Shown piece after piece: positions 39,944 through 64,000 of a stretch of 64,000 nucleotides of DNA (positions are counted from its first letter, which is position 1; every line of letters begins with the position of its first letter). A program made the position numbers and the translations under genes. Origin of the DNA: a phage; the sequence record PV467749.1, one strand, 5' to 3'. Under the pieces are notes generated by a model. The model was given only the letters and a program-made list of their open reading frames with translations. It made no database searches and was not told the origin of the DNA.

Positions 39944-39949
39944 CACATT

Positions 39950-39976: not shown

Positions 39977-39979
39977 TAT

Positions 39980-39987
39980 CATAAATA
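39980..39987 (+). promoter_or_regulatory. late-promoter-like box CATAAATA upstream of giant ORF
   Basis: atatCATAAATAaatc about 36 nt upstream of ATG 40024. Confidence 0.4.
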
Positions 39988-40023
39988 AATCAAATGAATG
40001 AACGAATTATATGGAGTCCAAAA

Positions 40024-46000: not shown

Positions 46001-49000
46001 ATTCCAGAACTAAATCTTGTACTGATATTGCTCGTATTATTAAAGAACCAGCACAGCTTAACATTCCTTGGTTTGCACCAATCAATGAAAGCTCGTTCAT
46101 TCTAAGTAATATGCAATTTGAAGTCAACGATGACACAAGTATTTTAACTGTTTCTTATTACATGGATAATACTGAAGTTATTAAACATGACCAGTATCAA
46201 TTATGTAAAGAAGGTGATAGCTATAACTTCAATCCATCAATCTGGACTTCTATGTGGAATTCTATGATTGGTCAAGAAACTACTGAATCAGGAACTGTTA
46301 TTGATTTACTATATCCTTTAGTACCAAACGGTTTAGGTTCTAATAAGACTTGGTTCCAAGATGTAATTGAAGCTCGTAGAAACTTTGTAGAAAGTGCAAA
46401 TAACTATTATCGCTCACAGAATATAACAACTAACACTGTTCTAATGGACGAAGTGTTTAATGTTAAAACTACTGAAGTTAACCCGAATGAAGTATCATAT
46501 CGTGTACTAACTTACAATAGTGAATTAGTCATTGCACCTGAAAGTGACAAGTTCAAAGAAAACGACGCAGTACTAGTAAGTACTAGTGGTGTATTACCTA
46601 ACCCACTATCAACTAGCTCTGTATATTTTGTGCATATTGATGCTAATGGTTATATTCATCTAATGAATAGTCCATCAAGTGCTGGTAGTGTGGTTACCAT
46701 TACATTGGAAAACCGTGGTGAAGGTCAACAGAAAATGATTAAACAATCAGACTATGTTGAAGCACTAGGAACTTCATTGGACATGACCCAGTACTGGTCA
46801 CTAGCAGATTGGTATGATATTGGTTACGATAAAAATACTGCATATACACAAGAATCCAGCCTAGAAGATGCAAACACTAAGAACTATCAAGTTGGTGACA
46901 TTATCAGAATTACAGATGTTGATGGCATCTGGACATTGTACATTAAAGCACAATCACGTGATTCAGTTTACTGGAAAGCAATTGGTCGTGAAAATAGTAC
47001 AGTTGAATTGAATGATATGTTATACGCTGACTATACAGTTCGTGATGCTAATGGTTCGTTGAGTAATCGTGAGATTAACGTTCGTAAAGCACTAGCTTTA
47101 TTGAAGAACTCATTCGACTTACATCAGAGTGAAATTGTGTTTGATATGGTTAAGTATGTTCACGTAGAACAAAGCGTTGTTGATTGGGTATTCAAAACAT
47201 CTTACATTTATATTGTAGGTTTAGAACAATCATTAGTACAGAACTATTCCAACGACAACTTGATTAATCAAATCGTTGAGTACTTTGAAGAAGTTAAACC
47301 ATATAGAACTAAGATTCGTTCCCAGATTGAACAGAAAACATCAGATGATGATTTAATTAAAGGTTTGTGTAATGATTTAGATCCTAATGGCTATATATTT
47401 GCAGATGGGACTTGGGTTAAAACGGAAAAAGACATTTGGGATTATGAATATGCTCAATTCAATGAGGTAACTCAACGTTGGGAGCAAGTTGGTGAATTGC
47501 CAAGTGATTTCGTAACACCTAATCGCCGTTTCCAAGAAATTGATGTTATCATGCACTACGACAACACTCAATGTAAACCAAATGATAATTTGGCAAGTGT
47601 TGATGTATTGGAAGAAGTGAATAAGAAATATCAATCTAATGCACAAGATGTTGTTAGTAATTTTGAATTACAACGTTACAAATATACATTCCCAGAATAC
47701 AGTGATGAAGATTTCGACCTATTGGTTGCTTATCAGATGCAATTGTATTACCCAGAATTGAACGTAACTCTAGGGATTGCTTACGGTGTTAACCAATGGT
47801 ATGCAGACCATGCAGATGATTTGGTAGCAACCGCAGAATTCACAGAAACGTTGAATCGTGTATATAAAGAATCAACACAAAATGAAATGTTTAATGACGT
47901 AAATCATTACGTTCAGTATAACACACTCTCTAACCGTTTGAAATTGTACACAGGTGCAGATGATGAAGTAATTCATGATGAAGTTGGATGTGGATTTAGT
48001 GGGTTAACCTATGATGATAATCCAAGCACCAGACTACCGTTTGGTTATGCATCCAGTACTGATTATAACTTTGGTTACTTTGAAGTTAGTAGTGAGTTGT
48101 ATAAAAAGTATGTTTCTTTAATTAAAGAAAACAATACTACTGCAACTGATGATGAAGTTAGAATTATACTTGAAGTTGAATATGGTGTTTATTCATATCG
48201 CCATGTAGATGAAGATGGAAATCAACGATTCTACAATGACGCAATTCATGTATTGTCCGGTATGCGTGGTTTGTATGACAAAGATGCTACCGACCATTAT
48301 GAAAAGGCTGAAGAAATACTAAGTAGAATGCCTATTGATATTCATGCATTTACTATGATGCCACGAAAATATGTTTATGTTAATGTTAATGGTGTATACG
48401 AGAGTATCCCAGATGACCAAAGCATTGATGATTTCATGGAAGACAAATTCATAACTGACGGTCAACTAGTTCAATTGGCAGAAATAAATCTTGATGACTT
48501 ACCTCTTGATAGAAATAACCCAATGTACAGTGATTATCAGCACATCCTAGATAGCATCACCGATGCTAAGTACTACGATGATATGAATGCATTTGATAAC
48601 CTAGCACTTGAATCACAAACTTCCGAGTTAAAATGGGAAGTTGAAGGTGACGAAGTAGATCCGTACATAATCGACATTTCTGATATTAACCCATCAGGAA
48701 GAAAGATTGGTCAGATTCGCTTCACAGTTGATGGTTATGGATTCAATAGTGTTTCACTAGTTCAATTGAGAGACAATAGTAGATATAAAACTGAAGGTAT
48801 GGTTATTATCAACCCTTATAAAACAACAGAAGCAATTGTTAGTATTCCTTCTTACGCTAAGATTGAAAATGATATTAGTAAATCATACAGTAAGTATGAT
48901 GAAAAATACTTCTATAAAATTAAATCAATTGTTAGTGATACAGAAGCTGAAGTAATTGACAATACCCTATCTGATGGTGATAAGGTTATGATATTCACAA

Positions 49001-49995
49001 CTGATGGTGAAGATTATGTGAGATACCAAAACAATGCATGGGAAACCATCTTGAGTGTATCAAAAATCAAAACTGACACCACACCAACCTTGTACACAGT
49101 AAGAAACACTGCGAACGGAACTGTAGAACTACTAGATAGTACTGGAGTTGTACTTCGTTATGATAACATCACTAAACAACAACAAAATGAACCAGCAATA
49201 CCTCTAGCATTGAACATCGTTCGTATTAGAACCTTTGCTGATCCAGAATTCTTGGTTGATGGTGTTAAGTTGTATGAAACAAATAGAAACTATGCTATCG
49301 ACGCAATGAACTATGAAGTATTCTACGACACAACACTATACGGTGGTTCTTATAATGATGGAATTACACCAGATGACGTTGATGTTTGGGTAGTGTCTAA
49401 CGAGATATTTGAAGTTGATGGTGTTACCATTGATAACGGATATAACTTACCAATTACTGGTGCAGGTGTTCTTAGTGAGTTAGTGAGAACCAAAATGACT
49501 GATAGTGTGGAAATTAACGTGTTCGAGTATGATGTTGGTATTATTCAACCAGTACTGAATACTGAAGGGGTATGGGAATATGCATATCCACTAGTTAGTG
49601 ATACATATATTGGTGTAGTTGGTGGAACAGTAACTAACATTACTGCTATCAGTGAAGAAAATGCTACTTATGTTTCACAACCAGATTCAGTTAGTCCATA
49701 TAGTGTTACTAATAATGTTCTATCTGGTGCTGGTGCAAGTATGAATGATATTATTTCTCTTGGTTTTGAAAAAGTTGAAGTACGATTTGCAAATAACTTA
49801 CTCCGTGGGGTAATGTATAGTGCAGAACACGACTTTAAAGAGAATGTGACATATTCATTTAATGGCTTGAACTTAGGTAAAGTTAATTTACTAAAACGTT
49901 ATAGTGTTAACAGTTATCCAATCGAACTATCTGTTTACTCCGATAGTTTGCAAATAAGTGGTAATGACATTAAAAATCTATTAGAAGTTAAATAA
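40024..49995 (+). CDS. giant virion-associated protein (~3,320 aa), probable baseplate/tail component
   Basis: Uninterrupted ~10-kb ORF; start chosen at ATG (MTNNFKF) with GGAG RBS and CATAAATA late-like box about 36 nt upstream; track ORF starts 30 nt earlier without RBS. Confidence 0.85.
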   Translation: MTNNFKFQPTQMAEAVQKKLFIKRLPEWMQGLEDIQKVSDDVIQQWFNPAENELVDGYIGDMGSPAAAGNIFLHESTVARQLYQLSTAYVSRNDDSSIRSIQFYDDLVGYMNHYGALTENESRLFNGKFYSWTPPINPNKMNNYSSYLWDSKNSYNIATPDYIVMERGAENGNTWSLQNFWYTLGETLEDGTILTEELMQDSRFVRARAPIIEYNKNIELMNYGTKFRGTVDLFSDIIKPEDIVQKDINSGIRIDGIIPQDGMRILFTSIGNNGENNRIYKVYVKRMQDGTRVYGLALDPDEESESRPSGEPQDGDVVLIIKGNEFGNSSMYWDGSHWIQAQSKTSVNVFPQFQLYDRNGVKLNNTTTYPSSTFTGSSLFGFKINYNYATDSVYGYNIELGDYNYYTYENFLQSTRYTYEHLGVEVEIDGLYYYNVIGEGNTMNLETDWVRSTEYSKQYVKQTPQVERTVMFRVFSTVYDMESFKDPVEGMYAYVIEVDRTYQYYKAERETYLDWHVIVGDGVQSVKYNHTFELAQKVLDNSDDIIELVVDGVEIKEYTKTVVNNQVQSITIDSSVDLDEDSVVQIRTYSSTITPNKELGAYEVPINLQNNPYNSNIEYINQGDYTLHFQDIIQKNITSGSADDFNNYEERLAAGLVNNGVGTKIIQNEASMLPLMAHTANEDIDLFESIMFMQAEYFRFINKFNTQMLRLYEEDPSAFLGNSASNIVDAILTAINMGRDSSFPFYYDNVASTAGFIRAFVPPTPQFLGILQAYTPQKATFLTAGSKSSCYNISHTGVISKAYRVINGVDKMDDVVFELENRIFNSIDLTFKDIDYKPVLNSEDLFPTPYFTGTDYSAEEKKTLLLRGYINFTATNGISNSTHDYDANNWRTWNYTGSYYVVDGQRTEIPARGSWRAIYTDQYGTYRPATHPWEMMGFSQRPTWWNQEYEPTAVQVGEREGDVVYVYEALVMNENGDLVPSGLWDIDGTIGDSSTGTILSGERRGQYDKYKRFGVQPFKITKTGEKTSTGIDICEVEYIAPEVLGLVSGNLDHRAEPWAYGDMGDMEFTYMNTAMFAYDQMLLLYKAKPAQFANYYWDTRNDNLKPVYTDGSQFLYGETRKRLNFDSATLVHGEKNTRTIGYQMFVSDYLMYQNKNITTKYGDVVRSSYVNVAHKIGGFTKADQLTFTAKSFGLISQENQTIGLVRSNNIRDEQMSAVKITWNGSAYQIDGYDLVGAKFKYKIPVKNGRKVTLKLEDRTVVHYNEWKSEGTLEYGKIFNTYQEVYTFICGYGEYLKEHGWIFEDVNDSGAQQDWTTIAKDFVIWSQNNLSTGEFISCTPSAANAKFGADFGSVQSVTQNSGGVWSLLDDENQGIRQYEIETSRIGNVFTVRTTSESQKRMALIRLSLSSYEHAVVFDDKTIFGDYIYQPTYGAIQELIKMYGYITGAWTGRLQAPGFIILEAGTLPSFEKLVTDFELYYNSETPVSDVQLQELSNHLIGYQTRDYLQRMISSDVSRVDFYKGFIHDKGTNQVMEKVLRVSKSYDTDEYKALQEWAFKIGTYGNINGKKNLQFKLINDQFKQQPQMVSFDVNATSNGTGNGIVYYGEQGVDSRWITRPNGKFSFPMRSGRSENIQLPDIGPVTLDEISYVTKDFSTAYNDRINYMNNSGEIPDSVWMFKDGNDLWNIFELVDTEVEMLSIVPIENTDVYAEQFCKVTLSDDIPLNDGDYYYFVDETNFMPDTLTIESQYYTAGNDPRVMVVPFDTSITIDFTDPDTRPRLYRYVSRFSTEEMRQEYIDRKYSFKAPQSTLFDRPTTYDERTNITALYLNVFDPINGVIPGAAMQNVTYTSPVDPAQYNSNGELIQAWGADKVGQVWWNTSTAFYLDYTRAIYDADGNVDVDATNEYKRYNWGRLLPHSTVDVLEWVCSPVEPYNWDKYCKDVANKNKNNTMYLPSGTALEDNYSTFLEYDSTTDTYVTKYYFWVRDTIYVPPLHSRTKSCTDIARIIKEPAQLNIPWFAPINESSFILSNMQFEVNDDTSILTVSYYMDNTEVIKHDQYQLCKEGDSYNFNPSIWTSMWNSMIGQETTESGTVIDLLYPLVPNGLGSNKTWFQDVIEARRNFVESANNYYRSQNITTNTVLMDEVFNVKTTEVNPNEVSYRVLTYNSELVIAPESDKFKENDAVLVSTSGVLPNPLSTSSVYFVHIDANGYIHLMNSPSSAGSVVTITLENRGEGQQKMIKQSDYVEALGTSLDMTQYWSLADWYDIGYDKNTAYTQESSLEDANTKNYQVGDIIRITDVDGIWTLYIKAQSRDSVYWKAIGRENSTVELNDMLYADYTVRDANGSLSNREINVRKALALLKNSFDLHQSEIVFDMVKYVHVEQSVVDWVFKTSYIYIVGLEQSLVQNYSNDNLINQIVEYFEEVKPYRTKIRSQIEQKTSDDDLIKGLCNDLDPNGYIFADGTWVKTEKDIWDYEYAQFNEVTQRWEQVGELPSDFVTPNRRFQEIDVIMHYDNTQCKPNDNLASVDVLEEVNKKYQSNAQDVVSNFELQRYKYTFPEYSDEDFDLLVAYQMQLYYPELNVTLGIAYGVNQWYADHADDLVATAEFTETLNRVYKESTQNEMFNDVNHYVQYNTLSNRLKLYTGADDEVIHDEVGCGFSGLTYDDNPSTRLPFGYASSTDYNFGYFEVSSELYKKYVSLIKENNTTATDDEVRIILEVEYGVYSYRHVDEDGNQRFYNDAIHVLSGMRGLYDKDATDHYEKAEEILSRMPIDIHAFTMMPRKYVYVNVNGVYESIPDDQSIDDFMEDKFITDGQLVQLAEINLDDLPLDRNNPMYSDYQHILDSITDAKYYDDMNAFDNLALESQTSELKWEVEGDEVDPYIIDISDINPSGRKIGQIRFTVDGYGFNSVSLVQLRDNSRYKTEGMVIINPYKTTEAIVSIPSYAKIENDISKSYSKYDEKYFYKIKSIVSDTEAEVIDNTLSDGDKVMIFTTDGEDYVRYQNNAWETILSVSKIKTDTTPTLYTVRNTANGTVELLDSTGVVLRYDNITKQQQNEPAIPLALNIVRIRTFADPEFLVDGVKLYETNRNYAIDAMNYEVFYDTTLYGGSYNDGITPDDVDVWVVSNEIFEVDGVTIDNGYNLPITGAGVLSELVRTKMTDSVEINVFEYDVGIIQPVLNTEGVWEYAYPLVSDTYIGVVGGTVTNITAISEENATYVSQPDSVSPYSVTNNVLSGAGASMNDIISLGFEKVEVRFANNLLRGVMYSAEHDFKENVTYSFNGLNLGKVNLLKRYSVNSYPIELSVYSDSLQISGNDIKNLLEVK

Positions 49996-52425: not shown

Positions 52426-53922
52426 ATGGCATATAGAATGTGGAAAAAAGGTAGAACCAATGATTACAAGTTCATTGACTCTGCCATAGCAGAACAATAC
52501 AACATCGGTGGTGTTGACATGTGGCTTTATGCCTATGTCGGACCAAAACAAGTCGCTGATAACACTGATTTATCATACGGCGGTGATTATTATGGATCAG
52601 ATAGTACCGTTGTGTCAAGCATTGGTGATTTAATTTTTGGTGACACTCCAAGTCGTAACTATAATCTCGAAGCTATCACCTTAAGTTGCGTCTACCAAGT
52701 CCAAGAAGCAACTCCTGACTTGAAAATCCCAGGATTGTTCTTCAATTTTAACACAATGGACATCACAATTCATTATAACACAATGATTCAGCGTTTGGGA
52801 AGAAAAATTATGCCAGGTGACGTAATCGAACTTCCTAACTTACGTGATTTTGATGTACTTGGTAAAGATTCTGGTTTAAACCGCTTCTATGTAGTACAAG
52901 ATGGGTTTAGAACGTCAGAAGGTTACTCAGTTACATGGCAACATCACATTTACAAACTCCGTGTTAAACCTCTTACTGATTCACCAGAGTACTCTGACCT
53001 TCTAGGTAACAATAACTACCCTGATGACCCAGATGATCCAAACAACGGCAATGGTAATACTGATGATGGCTCTTCAGAGAACAGCAGTTATGGTAATGAA
53101 ATGGATATTATGAACCGTATCATTATGCAAGCTGATGATGAAGTACCATACATTCATTTTACTAACGAACACTTGTTCGATGACAGACCAGATACTGTTG
53201 ATTTGTCTAAGTATATGCTAAATGGATACGAATTACCAGAGGAACCGGCAAATAAAATGTATTTCCTCAAGAAAACTTACCCAGTACTGAAAGAACTATC
53301 TAATGATACATGGATTTCTGTAGAAGTCAAGCGTGGAACAATCTTTCCTCGCAAACCGATGGATGGTGACTTCTTCTTTAAAGAAAACGAGGCTGATGTC
53401 ACTGGCTTCTCATTGTATCAATACGATAAATCTGCCAAAAAGTGGCTAAATTGTGATGTTGAGTATACTACAGAAAGCACACCACCACAAGGGGTTGATG
53501 ATTTTTATATTGAATACAAAGAACCACACATTTATCAGTACTTAAATGGTAAATGGGGAGAACCAGAAGTAACTTACGTTAATGACCCATTCACTTCTAA
53601 TAGTGTTTATGGAAATATCGATTCACAACAAGATTATCGTCCTAAGATTCCTCCAGCACGAGGTACAGTTCCTGAAGGTAACATGTTCCCAAGTGATGCA
53701 GTTGATGGTGATTACTACTATCGTACCGATTATACACCAGTAACCCTATGGGAATACAGTGCGTCCAAGAATTCTTGGGTGATTTTCGATTACGGTGGTA
53801 GAAAACCGTGGGAAGGTGCAGATCTTGCTCTAACAGAATTTGTTAATAGCCCGAACCGTGTGCCATTACATGATGCAGTTAAACCTAATACAGTGTATCG
53901 TATACATAAGGATTCAGAATGA
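52426..53922 (+). CDS. putative neck/tail-completion structural protein (position of gp13/gp14)
   Basis: Start at ATG (MAYRMWKK) with GGAGA RBS; track start is an upstream TTG; immediately precedes gp15-like gene. Confidence 0.65.
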   Translation: MAYRMWKKGRTNDYKFIDSAIAEQYNIGGVDMWLYAYVGPKQVADNTDLSYGGDYYGSDSTVVSSIGDLIFGDTPSRNYNLEAITLSCVYQVQEATPDLKIPGLFFNFNTMDITIHYNTMIQRLGRKIMPGDVIELPNLRDFDVLGKDSGLNRFYVVQDGFRTSEGYSVTWQHHIYKLRVKPLTDSPEYSDLLGNNNYPDDPDDPNNGNGNTDDGSSENSSYGNEMDIMNRIIMQADDEVPYIHFTNEHLFDDRPDTVDLSKYMLNGYELPEEPANKMYFLKKTYPVLKELSNDTWISVEVKRGTIFPRKPMDGDFFFKENEADVTGFSLYQYDKSAKKWLNCDVEYTTESTPPQGVDDFYIEYKEPHIYQYLNGKWGEPEVTYVNDPFTSNSVYGNIDSQQDYRPKIPPARGTVPEGNMFPSDAVDGDYYYRTDYTPVTLWEYSASKNSWVIFDYGGRKPWEGADLALTEFVNSPNRVPLHDAVKPNTVYRIHKDSE

Positions 53923-55262
53923 AAATAGATTATTATTATGATGGTCAATTTCGTCGAGTACTGAAACATCTTATCAGAGTGTTTGGTGAATTTCAAGTAC
54001 AAAATGGTGTTGATGCTGACGGAAAACCAAAATATAAGAAAGTTCCTTGCCGCTATGCAGATATTTCACGTATGGCAGCAGCAATTATTAATGGTAACAG
54101 TGAGAACGTGCTTCCAACAGCACCAATCATGACCATTAGTGTAAACCAACTTAAACTAGATCGCAAGTCAGTTCGTTCAAACGCAAATGAAACATTGGTT
54201 ATGGGGACTAACAAGTCCCCTGGAATTAACGAATATACTAAAGACTTAGATAAACAGTATAAAGTAACTCGTCATAACCCAGTACCTTGGACATTTACTT
54301 TTGATGTTAATATTTGGGTTACACAAACACAAACCAAAATGGAACTATTTGAGCAAATTTCAACATTGTTTGCTCCTAGTATTCAATTACAACTCTCCGA
54401 GAACCCATTGGATTGGACATCATTGAGTGATGTGGAGTTAATTGACTGTCAATTTACTACTCGTGGTTTCCCACAAGGAACCGATAGTGATTTGGATATA
54501 ATGGTTTTGACATTTGAAACAACAATTTGGTTCTCTTTGCCAGCTATTGTTGAGAAACCAAAACTTATTCAACAAATTACCACCAATATTAAAGGTGCTC
54601 GTGATGAACTTGATTTTGAAATTGGTAATTACTCGGATATCATTACTGATGTATTCACACCAAAGAACTTATGTATTAAAGTTGATGAAATAACAAACTC
54701 TGAACTTAATATTCCAGATACTTACCAACTCACTCTTGTTAGTCAATCACTATCAGAAACATCACCAAATGGTGGAATTTATTCATGGGAAAAATACCTT
54801 AAGTACTTGGACCCAGAATATGAAGACAAGACGGTTGGTATCAAATTCCAACAAGCTATAGAAGAGGACAACCCACTAAAAGGACACATCTCTTCATTTG
54901 GTGAAGGTGCTGAATCTAACAAGATTGTAGTTCAGCTTGATAATAGTAATTATACTGTTGATTATACAATACATGGATTCATTAGTAAAAGCTCTTTGTT
55001 ATATAACGCACTGCCTGAACAATATTATGTAAATAATAGCATACATAACATCATTTACAAAGAGACTGAAATCCCAGCGAACTATTTGTTTAAAATTACC
55101 AATGATGGAGCAGAACTTATTGAGCCATCACTAGTACACAACTATGTTTATAATATGGAAGATAGTGGGTATTATAGATATAATGACAAATTCAAATGGC
55201 ATAAGAGTATTATGTCAGTATATCGTCAGGGGTATTGGAAAATAACTTTCACTGACAAATAA
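53919..55262 (+). CDS. tail sheath stabiliser / tail completion protein (T4 gp15-like)
   Basis: YYYDGQFRRVLKHLIRVFGEFQVQ vs T4 gp15 YFYNSSFRRYATLMGDLFSNIQIK; ATGA start/stop overlap with upstream gene. Confidence 0.8.
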   Translation: MKIDYYYDGQFRRVLKHLIRVFGEFQVQNGVDADGKPKYKKVPCRYADISRMAAAIINGNSENVLPTAPIMTISVNQLKLDRKSVRSNANETLVMGTNKSPGINEYTKDLDKQYKVTRHNPVPWTFTFDVNIWVTQTQTKMELFEQISTLFAPSIQLQLSENPLDWTSLSDVELIDCQFTTRGFPQGTDSDLDIMVLTFETTIWFSLPAIVEKPKLIQQITTNIKGARDELDFEIGNYSDIITDVFTPKNLCIKVDEITNSELNIPDTYQLTLVSQSLSETSPNGGIYSWEKYLKYLDPEYEDKTVGIKFQQAIEEDNPLKGHISSFGEGAESNKIVVQLDNSNYTVDYTIHGFISKSSLLYNALPEQYYVNNSIHNIIYKETEIPANYLFKITNDGAELIEPSLVHNYVYNMEDSGYYRYNDKFKWHKSIMSVYRQGYWKITFTDK

Positions 55263-55274
55263 GGAGGTGTTGTT

Positions 55275-55739
55275 ATGAATGAAGCAGTAGGTGCTATATT
55301 TTTATCTAAAAGTACTGGACACATGATGTTAAACTTGAGATCAGAAAGAAGTACGTATTCTAACAACTGGGCATTTGTTGGTGGGAAGCTTGAGTATAAT
55401 GAAACTCCTTTACAGGGTCTTATGCGTGAGATTAAAGAAGAACTAGGTGATTCTATTCCAACGATAATAGATATTATACCATTTGATGTGTTCTGCACTA
55501 AGAATGGTAAATTTAAATACTATTCATTTGTCATTGTAGTTGAAAATGAATTCGTACCTACTTTAAATCATGAGAGTTCTGGTTATGCATGGGTTAAGAT
55601 TGGCTCATGGCCTAAACCGTTACATCCTGGTGCAAAAAACACATTACTCAACGCAAATTTAATGAAGGATTTTTATTCATTGTGGGAAAGTATACGACAA
55701 GGTACACAGTTTGTCAACAGCTTACCATATCGATATTAA
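55275..55739 (+). CDS. NUDIX hydrolase
   Basis: Nudix box GGKLEYNETPLQGLMREIKEELGD; RBS AAGGAGG. Confidence 0.85.
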   Translation: MNEAVGAIFLSKSTGHMMLNLRSERSTYSNNWAFVGGKLEYNETPLQGLMREIKEELGDSIPTIIDIIPFDVFCTKNGKFKYYSFVIVVENEFVPTLNHESSGYAWVKIGSWPKPLHPGAKNTLLNANLMKDFYSLWESIRQGTQFVNSLPYRY

Positions 55740-55741
55740 TA

Positions 55742-55775
55742 AAAAAAGGAGCCATTGGCTCCTTTTTTCTTTTTA
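55742..55775. terminator. bidirectional terminator between NUDIX gene and minus-strand tail cluster
   Basis: AAAAAAAGGAGCC-ATTG-GCTCCTTTTTTCTTTTT. Confidence 0.8.
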
Positions 55776-56873
55776 TACCCCAATCAGTGGGATACCTGTT
55801 ATATTAAGTAGAACAGATGCTTGAAGCTTAACTGACTCACCTGCCGAAAGGTTGTTTACTATACCATCGACGCGGAACCCTAAGTTTTTATTAGAGTTGA
55901 GAGAGTTAATCACCCAGTTTTCGTAATCCGCTTTTGTAATACCATTCGGATTTGGGAGAGTTGGGTCAACATCATTAATTACCATAGAAACATCCCAATT
56001 CGGGCGACTACTTGTAATTACATCCTTGATTGATTCTAGTTGTGTAATGCGACGTGGATCTGGAATCTGACTTGCACCAATTGAACCAGGAACAAATGTA
56101 CCTTGATTATCAACATAGAACTGACCTTTAATGAAAAATGTTTTTGAATTATACGGAAGAGAAACAATTTCACCTGATGAATCACTAACTTCACGAATCA
56201 TAATTTTCAATTCATAAAAATAGTTACTACCAAATTCAAACACACCAGTACCATTTGTGAATGTTGTCCAGTTATTTGAATCAACCTGTGAAGTACCACC
56301 CATATTGAAGTACGCTAATGGCTTAGTACTGTTACTTTGTGTAAATTCAATATATTTCTTACCTGTATCATAGTTGATATCAAGTAGTGTGGAGTACTCT
56401 TTATTTTCTGGACGAGATGTTTGAATTTCACGCCATTCTTTATTTTTCATTAGGACACGAAGGGAATCACCATTACTGGTAAGAACCATACGACCCATAA
56501 TACTATTTTCACCATCTGGTACTGTGTTGAAAATTGAAATCATTGGGATAGATGCCCAGTCAGCTTCAGATGCAGTATCTACTGGCTGACGAGCATTATC
56601 AACTAATGCAAGAAGTAGTTCGCCAGTGTTGCCAGTATTTCTGTACCAAATCTGACCATTAACGTTACCACGAGGTGCAGTAGCTCCACTGAAGTTCTCA
56701 ACCAAGTGGAGGAAGTTTTCGTTCCATGCTTGACCGTAACCAACTTTATTTCGACCTGCAAAGTTTAACGGTACTGGGTTACTACCAGGTTGGTTTGGTC
56801 CTAATATTACGTTATTTGGAATGGTAGCATAAACGCTACCATTACTTCTATAAATTGTATAACTTACACTCAT
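55773..56873 (-). CDS. putative baseplate/tail fiber-associated structural protein (366 aa)
   Basis: Complete ORF with RBS; in minus-strand three-gene tail cluster; no motif-level assignment. Confidence 0.7.
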   Translation of the reverse strand: MSVSYTIYRSNGSVYATIPNNVILGPNQPGSNPVPLNFAGRNKVGYGQAWNENFLHLVENFSGATAPRGNVNGQIWYRNTGNTGELLLALVDNARQPVDTASEADWASIPMISIFNTVPDGENSIMGRMVLTSNGDSLRVLMKNKEWREIQTSRPENKEYSTLLDINYDTGKKYIEFTQSNSTKPLAYFNMGGTSQVDSNNWTTFTNGTGVFEFGSNYFYELKIMIREVSDSSGEIVSLPYNSKTFFIKGQFYVDNQGTFVPGSIGASQIPDPRRITQLESIKDVITSSRPNWDVSMVINDVDPTLPNPNGITKADYENWVINSLNSNKNLGFRVDGIVNNLSAGESVKLQASVLLNITGIPLIGV

Positions 56874-56885
56874 ATCATCACCTTA

Positions 56886-57494
56886 TTATTGTAGTTGGAC
56901 ACGAACTGTGTATTTGATTTGCAAAACACGGTTAGCACTTTTCTCAACTGGGTGAAAAATAATATGGGTAAGTGGAATACCGCTATCACCATTTGTATAT
57001 AAACCCAATTCGTCAAATACATATGTCCCATCCATGCTAGTACCAGAGCTAACACCTTGGTCAGATGGCTCACCTAAACCTAATGTACAAATACAGACGA
57101 TATCAGTGTAAGCTTGACCTGGAATGTGAACAGTTGTAATGTTGTTATATTGTGAATCAATACCAGCAGAGATACGTGGGTTGATTTTTTTCAGATAAGT
57201 CTGAGAATATAGACCACCGAAAGAAGTAACGCGTGGTTTCTTGTATGTGATACGACCAGTACTCAAAACTACTGTTCCACCATTACCAAAACGCATCTCA
57301 CTAATAGATCCAATAGGAATACCAGTACTATCTTGATTATAAGCCAACGCATTAGCAATAGCAGTACTCATATTTTCAGGGTGAATTGCGTTTGATTTAT
57401 CCAAAACGATTTTTTGGTTAGATGGATCAGTAACGTCAGTAATTAGTACATGACCCTTAACAAATAGTTTTGGTTGTTCTGTTTCTAATTTCAT
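56886..57494 (-). CDS. putative tail structural protein (202 aa)
   Basis: ATG with AAGGA RBS; co-oriented with flanking tail genes. Confidence 0.7.
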   Translation of the reverse strand: MKLETEQPKLFVKGHVLITDVTDPSNQKIVLDKSNAIHPENMSTAIANALAYNQDSTGIPIGSISEMRFGNGGTVVLSTGRITYKKPRVTSFGGLYSQTYLKKINPRISAGIDSQYNNITTVHIPGQAYTDIVCICTLGLGEPSDQGVSSGTSMDGTYVFDELGLYTNGDSGIPLTHIIFHPVEKSANRVLQIKYTVRVQLQ

Positions 57495-57503
57495 TTCTAA
57501 TCC

Positions 57504-58001
57504 TTAGTAGTTAATTAAAATTTGTTCTAACTTACCAGCTAAACTTTTTTGTACATCAGATGGATACTTGCTAATGTAATCACGGTCAATACCAACTTTC
57601 AGATAGGTAAAGTTTCCGGTTAAGGTTTCAGCGAATGTACCAGTTGTACCTTGTTCTCTAATAAGGTCGCCGCCATTTGGGTTAAGAATGACATTATCAG
57701 TAAATTCAAGATAGAAGTTGCAGCTTTCGGTAAATTTAATTGGGAACCAATCATCGTCAGATGGATTACTTGCCAGTGTAGCGAGTACGTAAATTCTACC
57801 AATGAAGTTACGTAGGGTAAAGGATATTGTATGTAATCCTGTAGTACTACCATAATAGCCGCCACTAGCTAATGGTAATGTTTGTTCGTTCCAATGATAA
57901 TCTAAGTTAGCAGGATACCAGCTATCTGATTCAGGAAATTCTTGCCATGAACCATCTTTAGTTTTTCTTTTGAAGAGGAAGTCTTTTGATCTTAATGCCA
58001 T
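57504..58001 (-). CDS. putative tail structural protein (165 aa)
   Basis: ATG with AAAAGGG RBS; first gene of minus-strand tail cluster. Confidence 0.7.
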   Translation of the reverse strand: MALRSKDFLFKRKTKDGSWQEFPESDSWYPANLDYHWNEQTLPLASGGYYGSTTGLHTISFTLRNFIGRIYVLATLASNPSDDDWFPIKFTESCNFYLEFTDNVILNPNGGDLIREQGTTGTFAETLTGNFTYLKVGIDRDYISKYPSDVQKSLAGKLEQILINY

Positions 58002-58110: not shown

Positions 58111-59238
58111 ATGACAATTTCATTCAACAATGGGTCAGGTGGTTCATGTAATAATTCTGGCATCAAAAGTTTAGTTATTAACGCTGCTGGACATTTAATT
58201 GTAACCTATTCCGACAATACAATCCAAGACCTAGGTCTAGTGGTTGGACAAAATGGTGCTAACGGTAGAAACTTTTATCCAAATGAGATAGGTTTTGAAG
58301 TTCCTAATGAACTCTTCCGTGTTGGTGAAGAACTAGGGTGGTGTTATCTTAGTCTTGCAAACGGCACTAGTACTTTATATTTTAAATCAAACGATGCCCA
58401 AGAAACAATTAGTACTTGGAACCGTGTAGAGTTTGGTAAAGGTGATACTGGTGAAGCTGGTAAACCATTCCACATTGACAGTTCTGGTACGGCGTTTCCA
58501 ACAACTGGTCTTTTCGATAATTACACATTCTATAATACTGAAGATGGTAAATTATATTTCTATCAAAGCGTAACTGCAACATGGAGTGATGGTATTCCTT
58601 TCCGTGGTGAACAAGGTCTACGTGGTCGTTTCCATATTGATAGTACTGGTAGTCAATTCCCAAGCATTGATAATCTACCACAAGATTATTGCTTCTATAA
58701 CACGACAGATGGTAATTTGTATTATGTCGATATCGTAACTACATCATCAACCCCAACTAAAGAGTGGAGTGCTGGTATCTTATTCCGTGGAAAAGACGGT
58801 GAAGAAGGTAAGCAAGGTGAACAAGGTATTCAGGGTGAACCAGGTAAAGATACAGTTGTTATTATCAACACTATTGATCATTCATGGACTAACGCATTGT
58901 TAGTTATTGGTACATGCCCTGCTGGATACCTAGTAACTAATATCGAAGTTGATATTAACCAAGCATATGATGAACCAGTAAATGAAATGTTTGTACGTTT
59001 CGGTGGTGAAGCACAAGAAGATATTGGTGGTACTGTAATTGCACCTGTTGATTATTTCGATATCAACCGCAAAATGCGTTACATTGTTAACGAAACCAAC
59101 CACGAAGTATCAAGTAAAGATGAAATCATTTCTTGTGTATTCAATGATTCCGTAAACAACAGTTCATTTGGTGAAATGAAGATCGTTTGTACTTTATCAT
59201 GGCAAGCACCTATTCAGCCTATTCAAGATAACATTTAA
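58111..59238 (+). CDS. tail fiber protein with collagen-like Gly-X-Y repeats
   Basis: Start at ATG (MTISFNNG) with AAGGGAAA RBS; GEAGKPF, GEQGLRGRF, GKDGEEGKQGEQGIQGEPGKD repeats. Confidence 0.8.
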   Translation: MTISFNNGSGGSCNNSGIKSLVINAAGHLIVTYSDNTIQDLGLVVGQNGANGRNFYPNEIGFEVPNELFRVGEELGWCYLSLANGTSTLYFKSNDAQETISTWNRVEFGKGDTGEAGKPFHIDSSGTAFPTTGLFDNYTFYNTEDGKLYFYQSVTATWSDGIPFRGEQGLRGRFHIDSTGSQFPSIDNLPQDYCFYNTTDGNLYYVDIVTTSSTPTKEWSAGILFRGKDGEEGKQGEQGIQGEPGKDTVVIINTIDHSWTNALLVIGTCPAGYLVTNIEVDINQAYDEPVNEMFVRFGGEAQEDIGGTVIAPVDYFDINRKMRYIVNETNHEVSSKDEIISCVFNDSVNNSSFGEMKIVCTLSWQAPIQPIQDNI

Positions 59239-59252
59239 AAGAGGGTTGATAA

Positions 59253-59288
59253 ATGGCAGTTTTTTCCAATTTAGAAGGGACCATGATG
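59253..59288 (+). repeat. direct repeat (copy 1) covering start of tailspike gene
   Basis: atggcagttttttccaatttagaagggaccatga; about 32/34 identical to copy at 61409. Confidence 0.75.
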
Positions 59289-61394
59289 CCAACATTCAAG
59301 TTGGGTAAACGTGGTGCTTCTATTAATTTTGTAAACGATTCTGTCGCAATCAAAGACTTTTTAGGCGAAACGTTCCTACCTGTTAAGGTGGGAACTCCTA
59401 ATGACGATGATTCCGCAGTAAACGTTAGGTATCTTGAAGATAACCCAAATGCTTTATTTGGCGTACTTCCACCAACAAATGACATTGGTAAAAATAACAA
59501 CACTTATTTTCAAGTTGATTCTGAGGGTATTGTTGATATCTTTGCAAAAACAAATGATGTTTGGGTAAAATCATTATACATTAATAAAAATGTCCTTTCC
59601 AGTGTTAACGGTGCTGATTATATCGGACTTATTACTGGAGGAACACTTCAACAGGCACAGTTTTACATAACTCCAGAAGAGTTTGGTGCAAAAGGTGATG
59701 GCATCACTGATGACACGGCGGCGGTTAACGCATGTGCAGTTTATGCTAAAGAACACAAAATCCAAATTCAAGCTGGTGGTAATTATCGTATCAGAACTGC
59801 TGTTTATTTGAATGATATTCAATGGTTTGGTGGTACAATCACTGGTAACGGTGGCACAATGGTATCGGTACTGAATAGTACAATCCAACAAGCAACATTA
59901 ACAGGATGTTATTTAAAATTCTTTGGTGGTAATGGTAAATTTTATTTTAATAAATTTATTAATATTACAAGTACTGCTGCATTTCTAATGCAAGGTATGA
60001 CTGAATCAGGTACTATCGACTTCTGCTTTAATGAAATGACACAATGTAAGTACGGTGTTCTTCAGCAAGGCACTGGTGAGAAAATGACCGTTGGGCGTTA
60101 TTCATACAACCACATCCATGATATATATGGTGATGCAATTGAATTGAACGTAGTCAACTCACATTACCCAGACGGATTTGTAATAGAAGGTAACTTGATT
60201 GAAAACGTAGATGGTACAAATGCACCAATTCCTCTTTCAAACTGGGGTATTGGTATCGGTGTTGCAGGTTCTGGTCCTTATGATGTGAATGCTGATGATT
60301 CACAATATGTAAAAAAATTCGTTATAAAAAATAACCGCTTGTACAATGTCCGTCAATGTATTCACGTTGAGTTGGGTAAAGACTTTAAAATTCTCAATAA
60401 TGAAGTTTATCCATCAACGTTGGTATCAATTGGTACTGGTTTGACAACCGCTGGTGTAATTACTTATGGTTCTGTTGATTTTATTATTGATGGCCTATCT
60501 GGGCATCTATTAAATGATCCATCAGTAACTAACCGTATGGTTTCTATTAACTGGGGCGTAACATCTGGTAAATTTGCTGGTCCACCACGAAACTTTAAAT
60601 TATGTAATCTCCACATTCCTGAGTCGTCTATTATTGTGTATACTTCAGGCTCTGATAATTGGCTAAATACTACTGAACTTTCTAATATTACATGTAGTAG
60701 AATTCAATGGCGTGGATTGCCGTCATCTTCCAAGTTTAATAATATCAGTACTAAAGAACTTGATGTTATTGGACAACACCTTGCAACTGAAGGTGAAGGA
60801 GGGGGCTTATATACTCGCTCTAAATATACATATACCAACTGGACTAATTGTGTTGTTCAAGATGATTGTAACATATCAAAATATAGTTTCTCAAGAATGT
60901 ATGTTGACCGTATTGACCAATCATCTAATAACTTTAAAGTAACCACTGCAATTGATGGAACGGGTCATCGTGGACCTGTAGTAATACCTGTAGTTGAACA
61001 GTATTACGTGCCTTATGATGTTTTTCCTGGTGGGAGATATTTCCCAGCAGGAACAATTATCCATAAACAATCAGGTGGAAAATTTATTGTTACAGTAGGT
61101 GGTTCTTTCTTTGGTCGATATGACACAATTAGACAAACAGTTGCAGGACAAACTTATATCGAAGCATTGGGTGTATCATGGGGTGATAATCAATATGCTA
61201 AAGCTGCTGGAACCGAAATCCTAATCACAGGAGCAGGGGAAAATGGCGAAGATTTAAAAACATATATCACTAGAGCAGTTTATGTTGTTAATAATGCGTA
61301 TCGTATCGATATTGCCGATCCGATTGTTACTGCTACCGCAGCAGGGGCATTATTGAAAGCTGCTCAACCAATAACATATATCACCCTATCTTAA
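59253..61394 (+). CDS. tailspike with pectate-lyase-like beta-helix (putative polysaccharide depolymerase)
   Basis: FGAKGDGITDDTAAVNA motif typical of pectate lyase superfamily tailspikes; conserved N-terminal anchor MAVFSNLEGTM shared with next gene. Confidence 0.8.
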   Translation: MAVFSNLEGTMMPTFKLGKRGASINFVNDSVAIKDFLGETFLPVKVGTPNDDDSAVNVRYLEDNPNALFGVLPPTNDIGKNNNTYFQVDSEGIVDIFAKTNDVWVKSLYINKNVLSSVNGADYIGLITGGTLQQAQFYITPEEFGAKGDGITDDTAAVNACAVYAKEHKIQIQAGGNYRIRTAVYLNDIQWFGGTITGNGGTMVSVLNSTIQQATLTGCYLKFFGGNGKFYFNKFINITSTAAFLMQGMTESGTIDFCFNEMTQCKYGVLQQGTGEKMTVGRYSYNHIHDIYGDAIELNVVNSHYPDGFVIEGNLIENVDGTNAPIPLSNWGIGIGVAGSGPYDVNADDSQYVKKFVIKNNRLYNVRQCIHVELGKDFKILNNEVYPSTLVSIGTGLTTAGVITYGSVDFIIDGLSGHLLNDPSVTNRMVSINWGVTSGKFAGPPRNFKLCNLHIPESSIIVYTSGSDNWLNTTELSNITCSRIQWRGLPSSSKFNNISTKELDVIGQHLATEGEGGGLYTRSKYTYTNWTNCVVQDDCNISKYSFSRMYVDRIDQSSNNFKVTTAIDGTGHRGPVVIPVVEQYYVPYDVFPGGRYFPAGTIIHKQSGGKFIVTVGGSFFGRYDTIRQTVAGQTYIEALGVSWGDNQYAKAAGTEILITGAGENGEDLKTYITRAVYVVNNAYRIDIADPIVTATAAGALLKAAQPITYITLS

Positions 61395-61408
61395 AGGAGA
61401 TTATAAAA

Positions 61409-61444
61409 ATGGCAGTTTTTTCTAATTTAGAAGGAACCATGAAG
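61409..61444 (+). repeat. direct repeat (copy 2) covering start of next fiber gene
   Basis: atggcagttttttctaatttagaaggaaccatga. Confidence 0.75.
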
Positions 61445-62308
61445 AAGACCTTCATACTTGGTAAAAATGGTGCACAAATTGCCACTAATGGTAATGTTGT
61501 TCAAATCCAGAACTACACGGGTACACAACTTCTTCCTGTTTCAGCAGGTGACCCAACCGCAAATACACACTTGGTTACATTGGGTTATTTGAATACACAT
61601 AGCGGTGGCGGTGGTGGTTCCGGTATTTTACGTGGAACTATTGCACCATCTGAATCAATCGGTGTAGATGGTGACGCTTACTTCTTAGTTGACAGTACTA
61701 ATATTATTCAGATCTATATTAAAGACCTTGGTGTTTGGAAGCCTCTCCAAAGCACAACTCCAGGTACTGATAGTTCTTACGTTACTACTGAAATCGTTCC
61801 TGTATCGGCATTTACATTAGTTCCTGGAACAACTGATCAATATACTTATTCTTTACCTGAATCAGTACATGGTCGTGGACCAGATATTATGGTTCAGCTA
61901 CAGGGTGATCCTGGTAACATCCCACTTGACACTGTATTCCAAACTAACGTCACTGTGAGTGGTATTGGTGACATTACGATTGATGTTATTGGTCAAATCA
62001 CTGAATATACAAGTGTCAAAGTCAACATCATAGGAGCAACAACAATGACAGTACCTTATAGTAAATTAATTAATATAGCAGATTGGGTAGCATCTGGTGA
62101 TGATTACACCATTACTGTTCCAGCGTCAGAACATAACCAAACACCTGACAATTTGTATATTTCTATATATTCAAATAAAACACCAGGCAGTACAGCAGCA
62201 TCACCATTTGAACTGGTAATAACCGAAACTCAAATTGATGCAAGTGGTAATGTTACATTTACTTCTGACGAAGCGTTTAGTGGTAAAATAGTAATTTCCG
62301 GTAAATAA
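61409..62308 (+). CDS. tail fiber/spike protein sharing the N-terminal anchor module
   Basis: N-terminus MAVFSNLEGTMKKTFILGKNGA near-identical to 59253 gene at DNA level for about 34 nt; AAGGAG RBS; terminator downstream. Confidence 0.8.
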   Translation: MAVFSNLEGTMKKTFILGKNGAQIATNGNVVQIQNYTGTQLLPVSAGDPTANTHLVTLGYLNTHSGGGGGSGILRGTIAPSESIGVDGDAYFLVDSTNIIQIYIKDLGVWKPLQSTTPGTDSSYVTTEIVPVSAFTLVPGTTDQYTYSLPESVHGRGPDIMVQLQGDPGNIPLDTVFQTNVTVSGIGDITIDVIGQITEYTSVKVNIIGATTMTVPYSKLINIADWVASGDDYTITVPASEHNQTPDNLYISIYSNKTPGSTAASPFELVITETQIDASGNVTFTSDEAFSGKIVISGK

Positions 62309-62315
62309 AAAAAAT

Positions 62316-62350
62316 AGTCCAGACTATGATTCATCTAGTCTGGATTTTTT
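62316..62350 (+). terminator. intrinsic terminator after fiber gene 61409..62308
   Basis: TCCAGACTA-TGATTCATC-TAGTCTGGA followed by TTTTTT. Confidence 0.8.
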
Positions 62351-62426
62351 ATATCAATAACTAAATATATGTATATTAACAAGGTCAAATGTATTTTATG
62401 CTTTTTGCCTATTTGGAGGGAACTAA

Positions 62427-64000
62427 ATGTACTCGATTAAAACAGATCTCGATATAACTGGTGGTGCAACGGTTGCTAAAGATCTTCTTGTGAAAGGCGA
62501 TGCAGTATTCAATAAAAATCTAACAGTTAATGGAACTGTAACTTTTGCTGACGCTGTATTCACTGCAATTGAAGCAGAAACTGTAGACATTTCATCTACA
62601 CTAGATGTTGCTGGTAAAGCATCATTGAATGGTGGAATTGAAGTTCATGGTAATTCCGTAATTGGTAATTTGCCTGTTGGTTCTGATACTGCAACGATTA
62701 ATTCCAATGCACAATTCCAAAGCCCAGTATCAATGGCAGGTAACCTAACACAAACCGCTGGCACTGCTGTACTAAAAGATACCCAAGTGGCATCAATGGA
62801 TGTTCTTGGAACTTCTTCATTTAAAGGTAATATTACTGCTGAAACTGGCACTACCGCAGCATTTGACAAAATAACTGCAACTGATGCAACATTCACAAAC
62901 ACTGCAACTACTGATATCACATCAACTGGAACTGCAAACTTTAAAGATGTGAATATTTCCGGTACACTAGGTGGAACATTTAGTCTATCTGATGTTAATG
63001 CAACAACTCTAACTGTTTCTGGTTTAACCAGTCTACAAGGTGGTGTTACATTAGGTTCCAACATTACTGGTGTGAATAGTAGTGCAAACTTCCGTGATAT
63101 TAAAATTGGTTCCAATGCTGCAAACACTAACTACCGTTTGAGCTTTAACTATTCTGCTCCAAGTCTTCGTCCAACTGTAATTCTACAGAACGAAATCCAA
63201 TCAGAATTGATGTCTCCAGCTACCCTAAGTGTATTGAAAACTGCATCTTTTGGTGATTCGTCACTATCCACTTTTGGTATTACTGGTAATGGTCTAAACA
63301 AACTAGATTACCTAACAGTATCTGGTAACTCTGTTCAAGATCCAACAACTCCACTATTACAAGTAACTTCAGGTAAAACTAAAGTTCATGATTTCGAAGT
63401 AACAGGAACTGCAACTATTCCTAACATTGAAAGTACTGGTACTGCTAATTTTAATAACATCAACGTATCTGGTACACTCGGTGGTACTTTCAGTCTTGAT
63501 GATATTGAAGCAAACACTCTAACTGTTTCTGGATTAACTAGCCTTGTTGGTGGTGTAACTTTAGGTGCTGATATTTCCGGTGCTAATAGTACTGCTAATT
63601 TTAAAGCAGTAAGTTTAGGACAAAACGCAGCCGATGCTAACGTTAAGTATGGTTTTGCTTATTCTGCCCCTGGTGCTCGCCCAACTGTAATTCTACAAAA
63701 TGAAATTCAGTCTGAGCTAGTATCTCCAGCAGTACTTAATGTACAAAAAACTGCAACCTTTGGTGATGCATCTCTTGCAACCTATGGTATCACAGGTAAC
63801 GGTCTAAACAAACTAGATTATCTATCTATTACTGGTAATGGTACACAAAGTCCAGCTACCCCACAACTACAAGTTGCTGGTAAATCAGTACTAAATGATG
63901 TTGAATTCACTGGTACTGTAACTGGTCTAACTGTTGATGTAAGTGGGCAAGACCTAACTCCTAAATCAGTAGTTGCTGCTGAAGCAATCAAAGGTCAAAC
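62427..64000 (+). CDS. long repetitive tail fiber protein (3'-truncated by window end)
   Basis: ATG with GGAGGG RBS; open to window end; Thr/Gly/Asn/Val-rich with two ~150-aa internal tandem repeats; absent from ORF track because incomplete. Confidence 0.7.
   Translation, partial: MYSIKTDLDITGGATVAKDLLVKGDAVFNKNLTVNGTVTFADAVFTAIEAETVDISSTLDVAGKASLNGGIEVHGNSVIGNLPVGSDTATINSNAQFQSPVSMAGNLTQTAGTAVLKDTQVASMDVLGTSSFKGNITAETGTTAAFDKITATDATFTNTATTDITSTGTANFKDVNISGTLGGTFSLSDVNATTLTVSGLTSLQGGVTLGSNITGVNSSANFRDIKIGSNAANTNYRLSFNYSAPSLRPTVILQNEIQSELMSPATLSVLKTASFGDSSLSTFGITGNGLNKLDYLTVSGNSVQDPTTPLLQVTSGKTKVHDFEVTGTATIPNIESTGTANFNNINVSGTLGGTFSLDDIEANTLTVSGLTSLVGGVTLGADISGANSTANFKAVSLGQNAADANVKYGFAYSAPGARPTVILQNEIQSELVSPAVLNVQKTATFGDASLATYGITGNGLNKLDYLSITGNGTQSPATPQLQVAGKSVLNDVEFTGTVTGLTVDVSGQDLTPKSVVAAEAIKGQ
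62931..63890 (+). repeat. in-frame tandem duplication (two units of about 450-510 nt) inside the terminal fiber gene
   Basis: Protein repeats TGTANFKDVNISGTLGGTFSLSDVNATTLTVSGLTSL... and TGTANFNNINVSGTLGGTFSLDDIEANTLTVSGLTSL...; DNA segment ggtctaaacaaactagatta recurs about 510 nt apart. Confidence 0.75.

Follow-up and report, generated by a model that had tools for sequence, protein, structure and literature searches.

The window analyzed here (64,000 nucleotides of sequence record PV467749.1) belongs to an Asteriusvirus jumbo coliphage, with 99.6% identity to EC.P1 and about 78% identity to 121Q/PBECO4. Its terminal region, positions 58111 to 64000, is the start of the Asteriusvirus tail fiber gene cluster; 31 phage records covered at least 80% of this region, and recorded hosts include K-12 MG1655 and O157:H7. 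In agreement with an initial annotation of this DNA, four consecutive genes were found on the plus strand: ORF1 (58111 to 59238), ORF2 (59253 to 61394), ORF3 (61409 to 62308), and ORF4 (62427 to beyond the window end at 64000). Each was preceded by a Shine-Dalgarno-like sequence, and the gaps between ORF1 and ORF2 and between ORF2 and ORF3 measured 14 nt each. A terminator-like hairpin followed by a U-run (62316 to 62352, plus strand) lies 3' of ORF3 and separates ORF1-3 from ORF4. Its free energy was −15.9 kcal/mol (z, −5.3), and none of 200 shuffled sequences folded as well; a scan for consensus promoters and terminators did not rise above shuffled sequences and missed this hairpin. Because of the 14-nt gaps and the end at a hairpin with U-run, ORF1-3 probably constitute one late transcription unit. 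Past the window, the cluster extends into a second long-fiber paralog, a gene for a DUF4376 protein, and one for a 654-aa fiber-like protein. Orthologs of ORF1-3 in 121Q/PBECO4, including the colanidase gene, are already annotated in GenBank: 121Q gp573 (the PBECO4 "colanic acid-degrading protein"), gp572, gp574, and gp571 are orthologous and keep the order of the window genes, and the identities of 121Q to the window genes were 81% (ORF1), 87% (ORF2), and 82% (ORF3).

ORF1 (375 aa) encodes a "tail protein" that is conserved among Rak2-like jumbo phages; it matched phrog_13565 over its full length (E value, 4e-213). In the protein, a segment of about 55 aa occurs three times, and the segments are separated by short G-X-Y runs, three of them with 3 triplets and the longest with 7. 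The original description as a collagen-like fiber holds only marginally, since the Pfam Collagen profile (PF01391) scored 16.8 bits against a cutoff of 27.2. Orthologs in 121Q, A4, RaK2, GAP32, 7t3, and CBB were 60 to 82% identical, and those of CBB (CBB_228) and phAPEC6 (gp253) were detected in virions by mass spectrometry (MS). PDB sequence and profile searches with ORF1 returned no significant solved homolog.

ORF2 (713 aa) was assigned as a putative colanidase tailspike by its homology to phi92 gp150. Residues 96 to 712 matched PDB entries 6E0V/6E0W (phi92 gp150) over 617 residues (E value, 4e-233), and phrog_6117 ("colanic acid degradation") was matched from residue 94 only. The protein comprises an N-terminal anchor module (aa 1 to about 110; 59253 to 59582, plus strand) and a beta-helix domain with the predicted colanidase catalytic region, a mobile cassette (aa 96 to 713; 59538 to 61394, plus strand). 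Hydrolysis of colanic acid is reported only for phi92 gp150, which is described as an experimentally characterized hydrolase (PMC13450770). ORF2 contains the sequence EEFGAKGDGITDDTAAV and resembles phi92 gp150 in its catalytic region, which is homologous end to end, in the motif GAxGDGxTDDT, and in the predicted colanic acid substrate. In contrast, the N termini are unrelated, phi92-type proteins carrying about 188 residues with PF26208 and ORF2 carrying a 105-aa Rak2-type module, and phi92 is a 148-kb myophage, whereas ORF2 belongs to a 350-kb jumbo phage. ORF2 itself gave weak Pfam matches to a pectate-lyase-like family (PF12708; E value, 0.005) and to endosialidase N-terminal families, and its homologs matched Beta_helix and pectate-lyase families. 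From the end-to-end homology to a solved chain and these Pfam matches, we infer that ORF2 probably adopts a right-handed parallel beta-helix fold; the beta-helix tailspike proposed from the sequence alone was supported, with the match to the solved tailspike being decisive. In addition, PF27800 (WcaM) was precomputed on all ORF2 homologs, including one that is 99% identical (P0067), and the annotations of relatives read colanidase or colanic acid-degrading protein. These data support the assignment of ORF2 as a polysaccharide depolymerase tailspike of the beta-helix type with colanic acid as its predicted substrate, a call on activity and substrate that rests on 56 to 57% identity to phi92-type proteins. 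Most E. coli produce colanic acid as a slime induced by stress, not as a K capsule. The encapsulated host that had been predicted was not supported, given that the homolog phi92 gp150 degrades colanic acid and that hosts such as K-12 MG1655 and O157:H7 are on record.

ORF3 (299 aa) had been listed as a shorter fiber. A structure model instead showed an N-terminal module (aa 1 to about 112; 61409 to 61744, plus strand; matched by the module profile) followed by C-terminal beta-sandwich domains, which resemble lectin, CBM, or Ig sandwiches; PDB sequence and profile searches with ORF3 gave nothing significant. The homologs of ORF3, found across genera with different hosts, were all full length, and MS detected the ortholog in CBB virions. 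ORF3 is an ancestral core virion protein common to all Rak2-like phages, and its conservation at full length despite different hosts is unlike that of a variable receptor-binding cassette.

The complete divergence of ORF2 and ORF3 behind their first codons, as had been assumed, was not confirmed: their N-terminal domains are homologous over about 105 to 110 aa (41% identity; E value, 2e-19). In ORF2, this module is composed of an anchor submodule (aa 1 to about 65) and a small beta submodule (about aa 58 to 106). PDB sequence and profile searches with the module gave nothing significant, the N-terminal domains of ORF2 and ORF3 were not of the CBA120 TSP D1/XD type (T4 gp10-like, PF18668), and literature searches found no paper describing a shared N terminus in Asteriusvirus. 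Elsewhere, the ∼65 aa at the start of the module also head other proteins, together with beta-helix, Peptidase_S74, or BNR domains, and an unrelated 120-kb phage contig encodes two tailspikes that start with this ∼65-aa unit. The second half of the module weakly resembles collagen trimerization domains and is found as a repeat inside many collagen-like proteins. When all ORFs of the window were searched with the module profile (hmmsearch), only ORF2 and ORF3 matched; homology of the ORF1 repeats to the second half of the module was rejected on this result and on an hhalign probability of 0.1. As a separate observation, PF27114 (Phage_tail_beta) was precomputed on the two L010 tailspikes.

GAP32, 7t3, and CBB have the gene order ORF1-ORF3-long fiber, without ORF2. 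Since GAP32, CBB, 7t3, and RaK2 carry only an ORF3-type gene at the ORF2/ORF3 position, ORF2 is a lineage-specific addition that combines an ORF3-type anchor with a colanidase cassette that moves horizontally. The cassette, 56.5% identical to phi92-like Justusliebigvirus proteins, was present in 256 phage records from several lineages; elsewhere it stands behind at least five other N-terminal types (PF26208, PF18668, PF12571, PF09008, and PF03906), and in a different Rak2-like contig it occupies another position in the cluster. The modular anchor suggested by the initial annotation was therefore upheld by the homologous N termini of ORF2 and ORF3 and by the exchange of the cassette among anchor types across phages. 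Within Asteriusvirus, ORF2 and ORF3 were syntenic, with 82 to 87% identity when the EC.P1 lineage was compared with that of 121Q, and the comparison of related phages revealed no cassette swapping at the conserved junction.

Based on these homologies, domain boundaries, synteny, and conservation, we favor, with a probability of roughly 0.7, an explanation of the cluster in which ORF2 is a colanidase tailspike on an ORF3-type module and the long fibers are the variable part. The near-invariant N-terminal peptide of ORF3 and its ∼105-aa module most likely serve for trimerization and for docking on the tail or baseplate. Candidate docking partners are ORF1, three structural proteins encoded on the minus strand at 55773 to 58001, the baseplate wedge (36482 to 39943), and the N terminus of the long fiber. 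In ORF2, such a module is fused at about residue 95 to 110 to the beta-helix cassette, which moves horizontally among enterobacterial phages, and the resulting homotrimeric tailspike would occupy a socket of the kind used by ORF3. There, it may hydrolyze colanic acid slime and so allow the long tail fibers (ORF4 and its paralog) to reach the cell surface. Phage JP4 has an in-frame deletion of the entire beta-helix yet was isolated on O157:H7, and the enzyme is therefore accessory at best. A further point against this explanation is that PBECO4, which carries the colanidase gene, was reportedly blocked by a colanic acid-overproducing mutant in work by Kim and colleagues from 2015.

More tentatively, and with somewhat less than even confidence, the first ∼65 residues (MA[VI]FSNLxGTMxKxFxLGKxGA...) may represent a widespread docking module without a solved structure, used by unrelated phage lineages to mount very different receptor-binding domains, such as the colanidase, further beta-helices bearing an S74 chaperone, and BNR/sialidase-like propellers. 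ORF3 would then be the ancestral occupant of the socket, its C-terminal domains working with the long fiber, and the colanidase a second occupant added by Asteriusvirus. In line with this reading, RaK2 lacks both the long fiber and the DUF4376 gene, and its ORF3 is truncated to the bare 115-aa module.

The predicted location of ORF2 in the virion has to be weighed against the phAPEC6 virion proteome, which contains gp253 (the ORF1 ortholog) and gp256 (the long fiber) but lacks gp254 and gp255, identified by gene order and mass as the colanidase and ORF3 orthologs. ORF2 might accordingly be a soluble nonvirion enzyme, produced late in infection and set free by lysis, that aids diffusion of the progeny through slime or biofilm, a role speculated on in PMC13532299; its N-terminal module would only trimerize the protein, in line with the collagen-related features of the second half of the module, and not anchor it. 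We consider this unlikely. That a single MS list omits the protein carries little weight, and the module is common to ORF3, whose ortholog was found in CBB virions. Moreover, the peptide at the very N terminus does not vary across genera, as is typical of a docking interface, and the cassette elsewhere always follows recognized particle-binding domains (including the P22 head-binding, T7 fiber N-terminal, and CBA120 TSP N-terminal domains).

The window holds the first 524 aa of ORF4 (62427 to 64000, plus strand), 523 of which are identical to the EC.P1 gene, and as proposed initially, the protein is long and repetitive, reaching 1,644 aa in EC.P1 and containing internal repeats of about 170 aa. 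It matched the tail fiber family phrog_4549 (E value, 7e-110) and is homologous to the phiTE fiber (PDB 9CUY chain g; E value, 8e-19). Both are baseplate-attached myophage fibers with homologous central repeats (PMC11972413), but ORF4 is twice as long, tandem duplicated, and different at its N terminus. Orthologs of the long fiber, phAPEC6 gp256 and CBB_226, are present in virion MS lists. Homology to a fiber located at the baseplate and the presence of orthologs in virions identify ORF4 as a myophage long tail fiber. It is the first of two paralogs, which are 53% identical and have the N terminus MYSIKTDLD in common; the clade of the window (EC.P1, Ecwhy_1, CMSTMSU, and BF17) has both, whereas 121Q has one. 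Between the EC.P1 and 121Q lineages, the long fibers were only 52 to 54% identical, compared to 81 to 98% for all other genes compared (81 to 87% for ORF1-3 and 88 to 98% for the flanking genes). We infer that the long fibers are the variable host recognition element of the cluster. A hotspot of host range switching at the N-terminal junction, as had been predicted, is at odds with these values, since ORF2 and ORF3 (82 to 87%) remained close to the flanking genes.

The same comparison bears on the idea of a true multireceptor arsenal, in which ORF1, ORF3, and the long fibers would be independent receptor binders that broaden the host range by frequent swaps at the junction. Tandem fiber-like genes with two long-fiber paralogs, metagenomic module-bearing proteins with differing C-terminal domains, and the lectin-, CBM-, or Ig-like sandwiches of ORF3 would all suit it. 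However, ORF1 and ORF3 are conserved in phages of Escherichia, Cronobacter, Pectobacterium, Yersinia, Erwinia, and Salmonella, which is unexpected for host-specific binders, and the lack of junction swaps within Asteriusvirus also argues against it. A multidepolymerase arsenal, as originally envisaged, was not supported by Pfam scans of ORF1, ORF3, one of the long fibers (ORF4/LTF-A), and the 654-aa protein (p654), which left ORF2 as the only scanned protein of the cluster with an enzymatic domain. We therefore regard an arsenal as quite improbable and retain the single colanidase tailspike with variable long fibers.

The near-identical start of ORF2 and ORF3, correctly noted before, comprises 32 of the first 34 nt; only these two such sites exist in the window, and none was expected from 100 shuffles. 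Across all Asteriusvirus lineages, 29 to 32 of the 34 nt are identical, and the first module residues are invariant across genera. Since this identity is kept in all lineages while the module as a whole shows only 52% nucleotide identity, with near-identity limited to the first 11 codons, the high identity of the start points to purifying selection and not to recent conversion. Recent gene conversion was rejected on the codon-by-codon identity profile and the presence of the match in all lineages. The ORF2 module is equally distant (31 to 44% identity) from the ORF3 modules of every genus, and the split is therefore old. Thus, although the 32/34 match, the adjacency of the two genes, and split or frameshifted versions in some deposited genomes might suggest a functionally meaningless product of recent duplication or conversion between neighbors, or of annotation or assembly, the old split, the restriction of near-identity to 11 codons even in diverged lineages, and the intact, conserved state of both genes in dozens of genomes make this extremely improbable.

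In branched multi-tailspike systems, neighboring genes display differing C-terminal receptor-binding or enzymatic domains on homologous N-terminal modules (PMC10253068). CBA120 TSP1-4, RaK2/K64-1 gp526-534, and the KP32-type docking peptide resemble ORF2 and ORF3 in principle. Like branched multi-RBP systems of the CBA120/RaK2 type, the cluster has two neighboring genes with a homologous N-terminal domain (ORF2 and ORF3), but unlike them it does not have several depolymerases, ORF2 being the sole enzyme. The cluster illustrates the usual modularity of phage receptor-binding proteins and leaves the understanding of them unchanged. Its practical value is modest and lies in a precise domain boundary, at about residue 95 to 110, for engineering Asteriusvirus tailspikes. 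For host range differences among jumbo phages considered as therapeutic candidates, the long fibers and not the tailspike are the place to look. The conserved N-terminal module, for which no structure has been solved, might be used to attach new receptor-binding domains to Rak2-like phages.

Four consecutive plus-strand genes form the part of the fiber cluster that lies in the window: ORF1 (58111-59238; 375 aa), ORF2 (59253-61394; 713 aa), ORF3 (61409-62308; 299 aa), and ORF4, which starts at 62427 and continues to the end of the window. ORF1, ORF2, and ORF3 are spaced by 14 nt each, and the 118-nt gap between ORF3 and ORF4 holds a strong hairpin followed by a U-run (62316-62352, 3' of ORF3; -15.9 kcal/mol, z -5.3 by folding). 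This 6-kb region was 99.6% identical to Escherichia phage EC.P1, 98 to 99.5% identical to Ecwhy_1, vB_Ec-M-J, fEgEco12, CMSTMSU, and BF17, and ~78% identical to 121Q, PBECO4, and phAPEC6; these relatives are all Asteriusvirus jumbo myophages of ~350 kb. At least 80% of the region was covered in 31 records. In relatives, the genes are annotated as a tail protein, a colanic acid-degrading protein or colanidase tailspike, a virion structural protein, and a long tail fiber. The cluster adds one more case to a known design, in genomes that were already annotated. The initial annotation of four fiber or spike genes was largely right, except that the supposed collagen-like fiber, ORF1, is a conserved tail protein (60 to 82% identity across genera) with G-X-Y runs of 3, 3, 3, and 7 triplets, in which Pfam Collagen stayed below threshold.

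Upstream, a T4 gp15-like tail sheath stabilizer (Pfam E 5e-22) directly followed by a NUDIX hydrolase (53919-55739) lies within the structural module, a pair also kept in RaK2, GAP32, CBB, and 7t3. Between the NUDIX gene and ORF1, three conserved structural genes on the minus strand (55773-58001; 366, 202, and 165 aa) kept their synteny in all Rak2-like genera, and the first two have phAPEC6 and CBB orthologs in virion mass spectrometry (MS) lists. An 1153-aa and a 3333-aa ORF (36482-49995) correspond in size to gp244 (baseplate wedge, 131 kDa) and gp245 (382 kDa) of the phAPEC6 virion; this pairing, made by mass and order only, would put the baseplate genes ~8 kb upstream of the fiber cluster.

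The alignment between residues 96 to 712 of ORF2 and phage phi92 gp150, a protein of solved structure (PDB 6E0V/6E0W), ran end to end (E 4e-233), and the match to the PHROG "colanic acid degradation" profile began only at residue 94. phi92 gp150 is reported to be a colanic-acid hydrolase cleaving the beta-1,4 Glc-Fuc bond (Xu et al. 2025, as cited in PMC13450770). The colanidase domain (precomputed Pfam PF27800, WcaM) has a bacterial relative, the WcaM protein, hence the misannotations as "colanic acid biosynthesis." It was present in 256 phage records, with carriers including phi92-like Justusliebigvirus (56.5% identity), rV5-like and Phapecoctavirus myophages, and several podophages, such as NST1. 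In those phages, the domains preceding it were PF26208, PF18668 (CBA120 TSP N terminus), PF12571 (tail collar), PF09008 (P22 head binding), and PF03906 (T7 fiber N terminus), whereas ORF2 carries a Rak2-type module. This variety of N-terminal domains marks the cassette as a standard tailspike body that is exchanged horizontally. The idea of a modular anchor held in principle, as ORF2 and ORF3 have homologous N-terminal modules; the accompanying claims of multiple depolymerases and an encapsulated host found no support.

A scan of the window for the 34-nt start of ORF2 gave a single further site, the start of ORF3, which differed at 2 positions (0 expected by chance). Protein homology was not confined to these first 11 residues but extended over ~105 to 110 residues (41% identity, E 2e-19). 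Nucleotide identity was 94% in the first 11 codons and averaged ~50% in the remainder of the module. Recent recombination could have produced the near-identical start, but it is contradicted by this low identity and by recurrence of the same pattern in 121Q, A4, and JP4 (29 to 30 of 34 nt). Since the N-terminal peptide MAVFSNLEGTMKKxFILGKNGA was also near-invariant among ORF3 orthologs of every genus, the matching starts point to purifying selection on the peptide. The ORF2 module was equally distant from the ORF3 modules of all genera (31 to 44%), which makes the duplication or acquisition an old one.

ORF3 counts as a core gene and ORF2 as an insertion. ORF3 homologs formed 66 clusters with at least 44% identity, nearly all full length at 284 to 309 aa, with one fragment of 203 aa. 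The gene order gp15-like gene, NUDIX, three minus-strand structural genes, ORF1, ORF3, and long fiber was shared by GAP32, CBB, and Salmonella phage 7t3, and ORF2 was not found at this syntenic locus. The module occurs twice in Asteriusvirus genomes and once in those of other genera. In RaK2, the ORF3 homolog (ORF061w; 6001-6348 of comparison locus L002) consists of the module only (115 aa), and the long fiber and DUF4376 genes are missing from this locus, hinting that the C-terminal domains of ORF3 work together with the long fiber. RaK2 ORF060w (L002 6513-8045) is an ortholog (48% identity) of p654, a 654-aa Asteriusvirus structural protein; both adjoin the thymidylate synthase gene thyA. 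In another Rak2-like contig (Logan SRR31729320; L009 6320-8698), a 792-aa fusion of module and colanidase with ~86 additional C-terminal residues was located directly upstream of thyA, at the opposite end of the fiber cluster, suggesting that the fusion moves within the cluster.

In CBB, the orthologs of ORF3 (CBB_227; 5 peptides) and ORF1 (CBB_228) were detected by virion MS. For phAPEC6, gp253 and gp256 are on the virion proteome list, but gp254 and gp255, taken by order and mass as the orthologs of ORF2 and ORF3, are absent from it. In JP4 (PQ330092; L011 6001-6606), the colanidase gene encodes only 201 aa: the entire beta-helix is deleted in frame, and the N-terminal module and linker through FGAKGDG run directly into the final ~50 residues. 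Unless the deletion is an assembly artifact, JP4 is a naturally colanidase-null Asteriusvirus, and the colanidase would be dispensable on at least one host.

ORF4 covers the first 524 residues of a fiber of 1644 aa (523/524 identical to EC.P1), contains repeats of ~170 aa, and is homologous to the phiTE fiber. Beyond the window, the EC.P1 clade, to which it belongs, has a second tandem paralog of 1906 aa (53% identity; both start with MYSIKTDLD), and 121Q has a single long fiber of 1841 aa (L007 18427-29231 in EC.P1 versus L006 18435-23960 in 121Q). In vB_Ec-M-J, the first long fiber is deposited as 1049 plus 582 aa (L001 16429-21349) and the colanidase as two coding sequences (L001 13254-15396); both are single genes in EC.P1, so the splits are probably sequencing frameshifts. 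Between EC.P1 and 121Q, identity was 81% for ORF1, 87% for ORF2, 82% for ORF3, and 88 to 98% for flanking genes, but only 52 to 54% for the long fibers, which diverge more than any other gene in the cluster. Judged from these comparisons, the host-range hotspot would be the long fiber and not, as initially proposed, the ORF2/ORF3 junction, for which the claim was unsupported.

When a module profile was searched against 1.84 billion representative proteins, the module split into two submodules. The first (positions 1 to ~70) was found at the extreme N terminus of proteins of 99 to 1366 aa, some of which also have beta-helix, Peptidase_S74 chaperone, BNR or sialidase-like, or CBM5/12 domains; the second (positions ~65 to 112) is a unit present in 4 to 14 copies within long, often collagen-containing proteins. 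An unrelated 120-kb phage contig (Logan SRR18476386; L010 10001-20688) mirrors the ORF2/ORF3 arrangement, encoding two beta-helix tailspikes (780 and 705 aa) that both start with this ~65-residue N-terminal submodule. Precomputed Pfam PF27114 (Phage_tail_beta) is listed for both, and the 780-aa protein has an S74 chaperone. They are interleaved with two paralogous ~900-aa proteins and with a protein of 199 aa that begins much like the long-fiber N terminus. The one mildly new point of this cluster is the N-terminal module of Rak2 type, together with its distribution beyond these phages.
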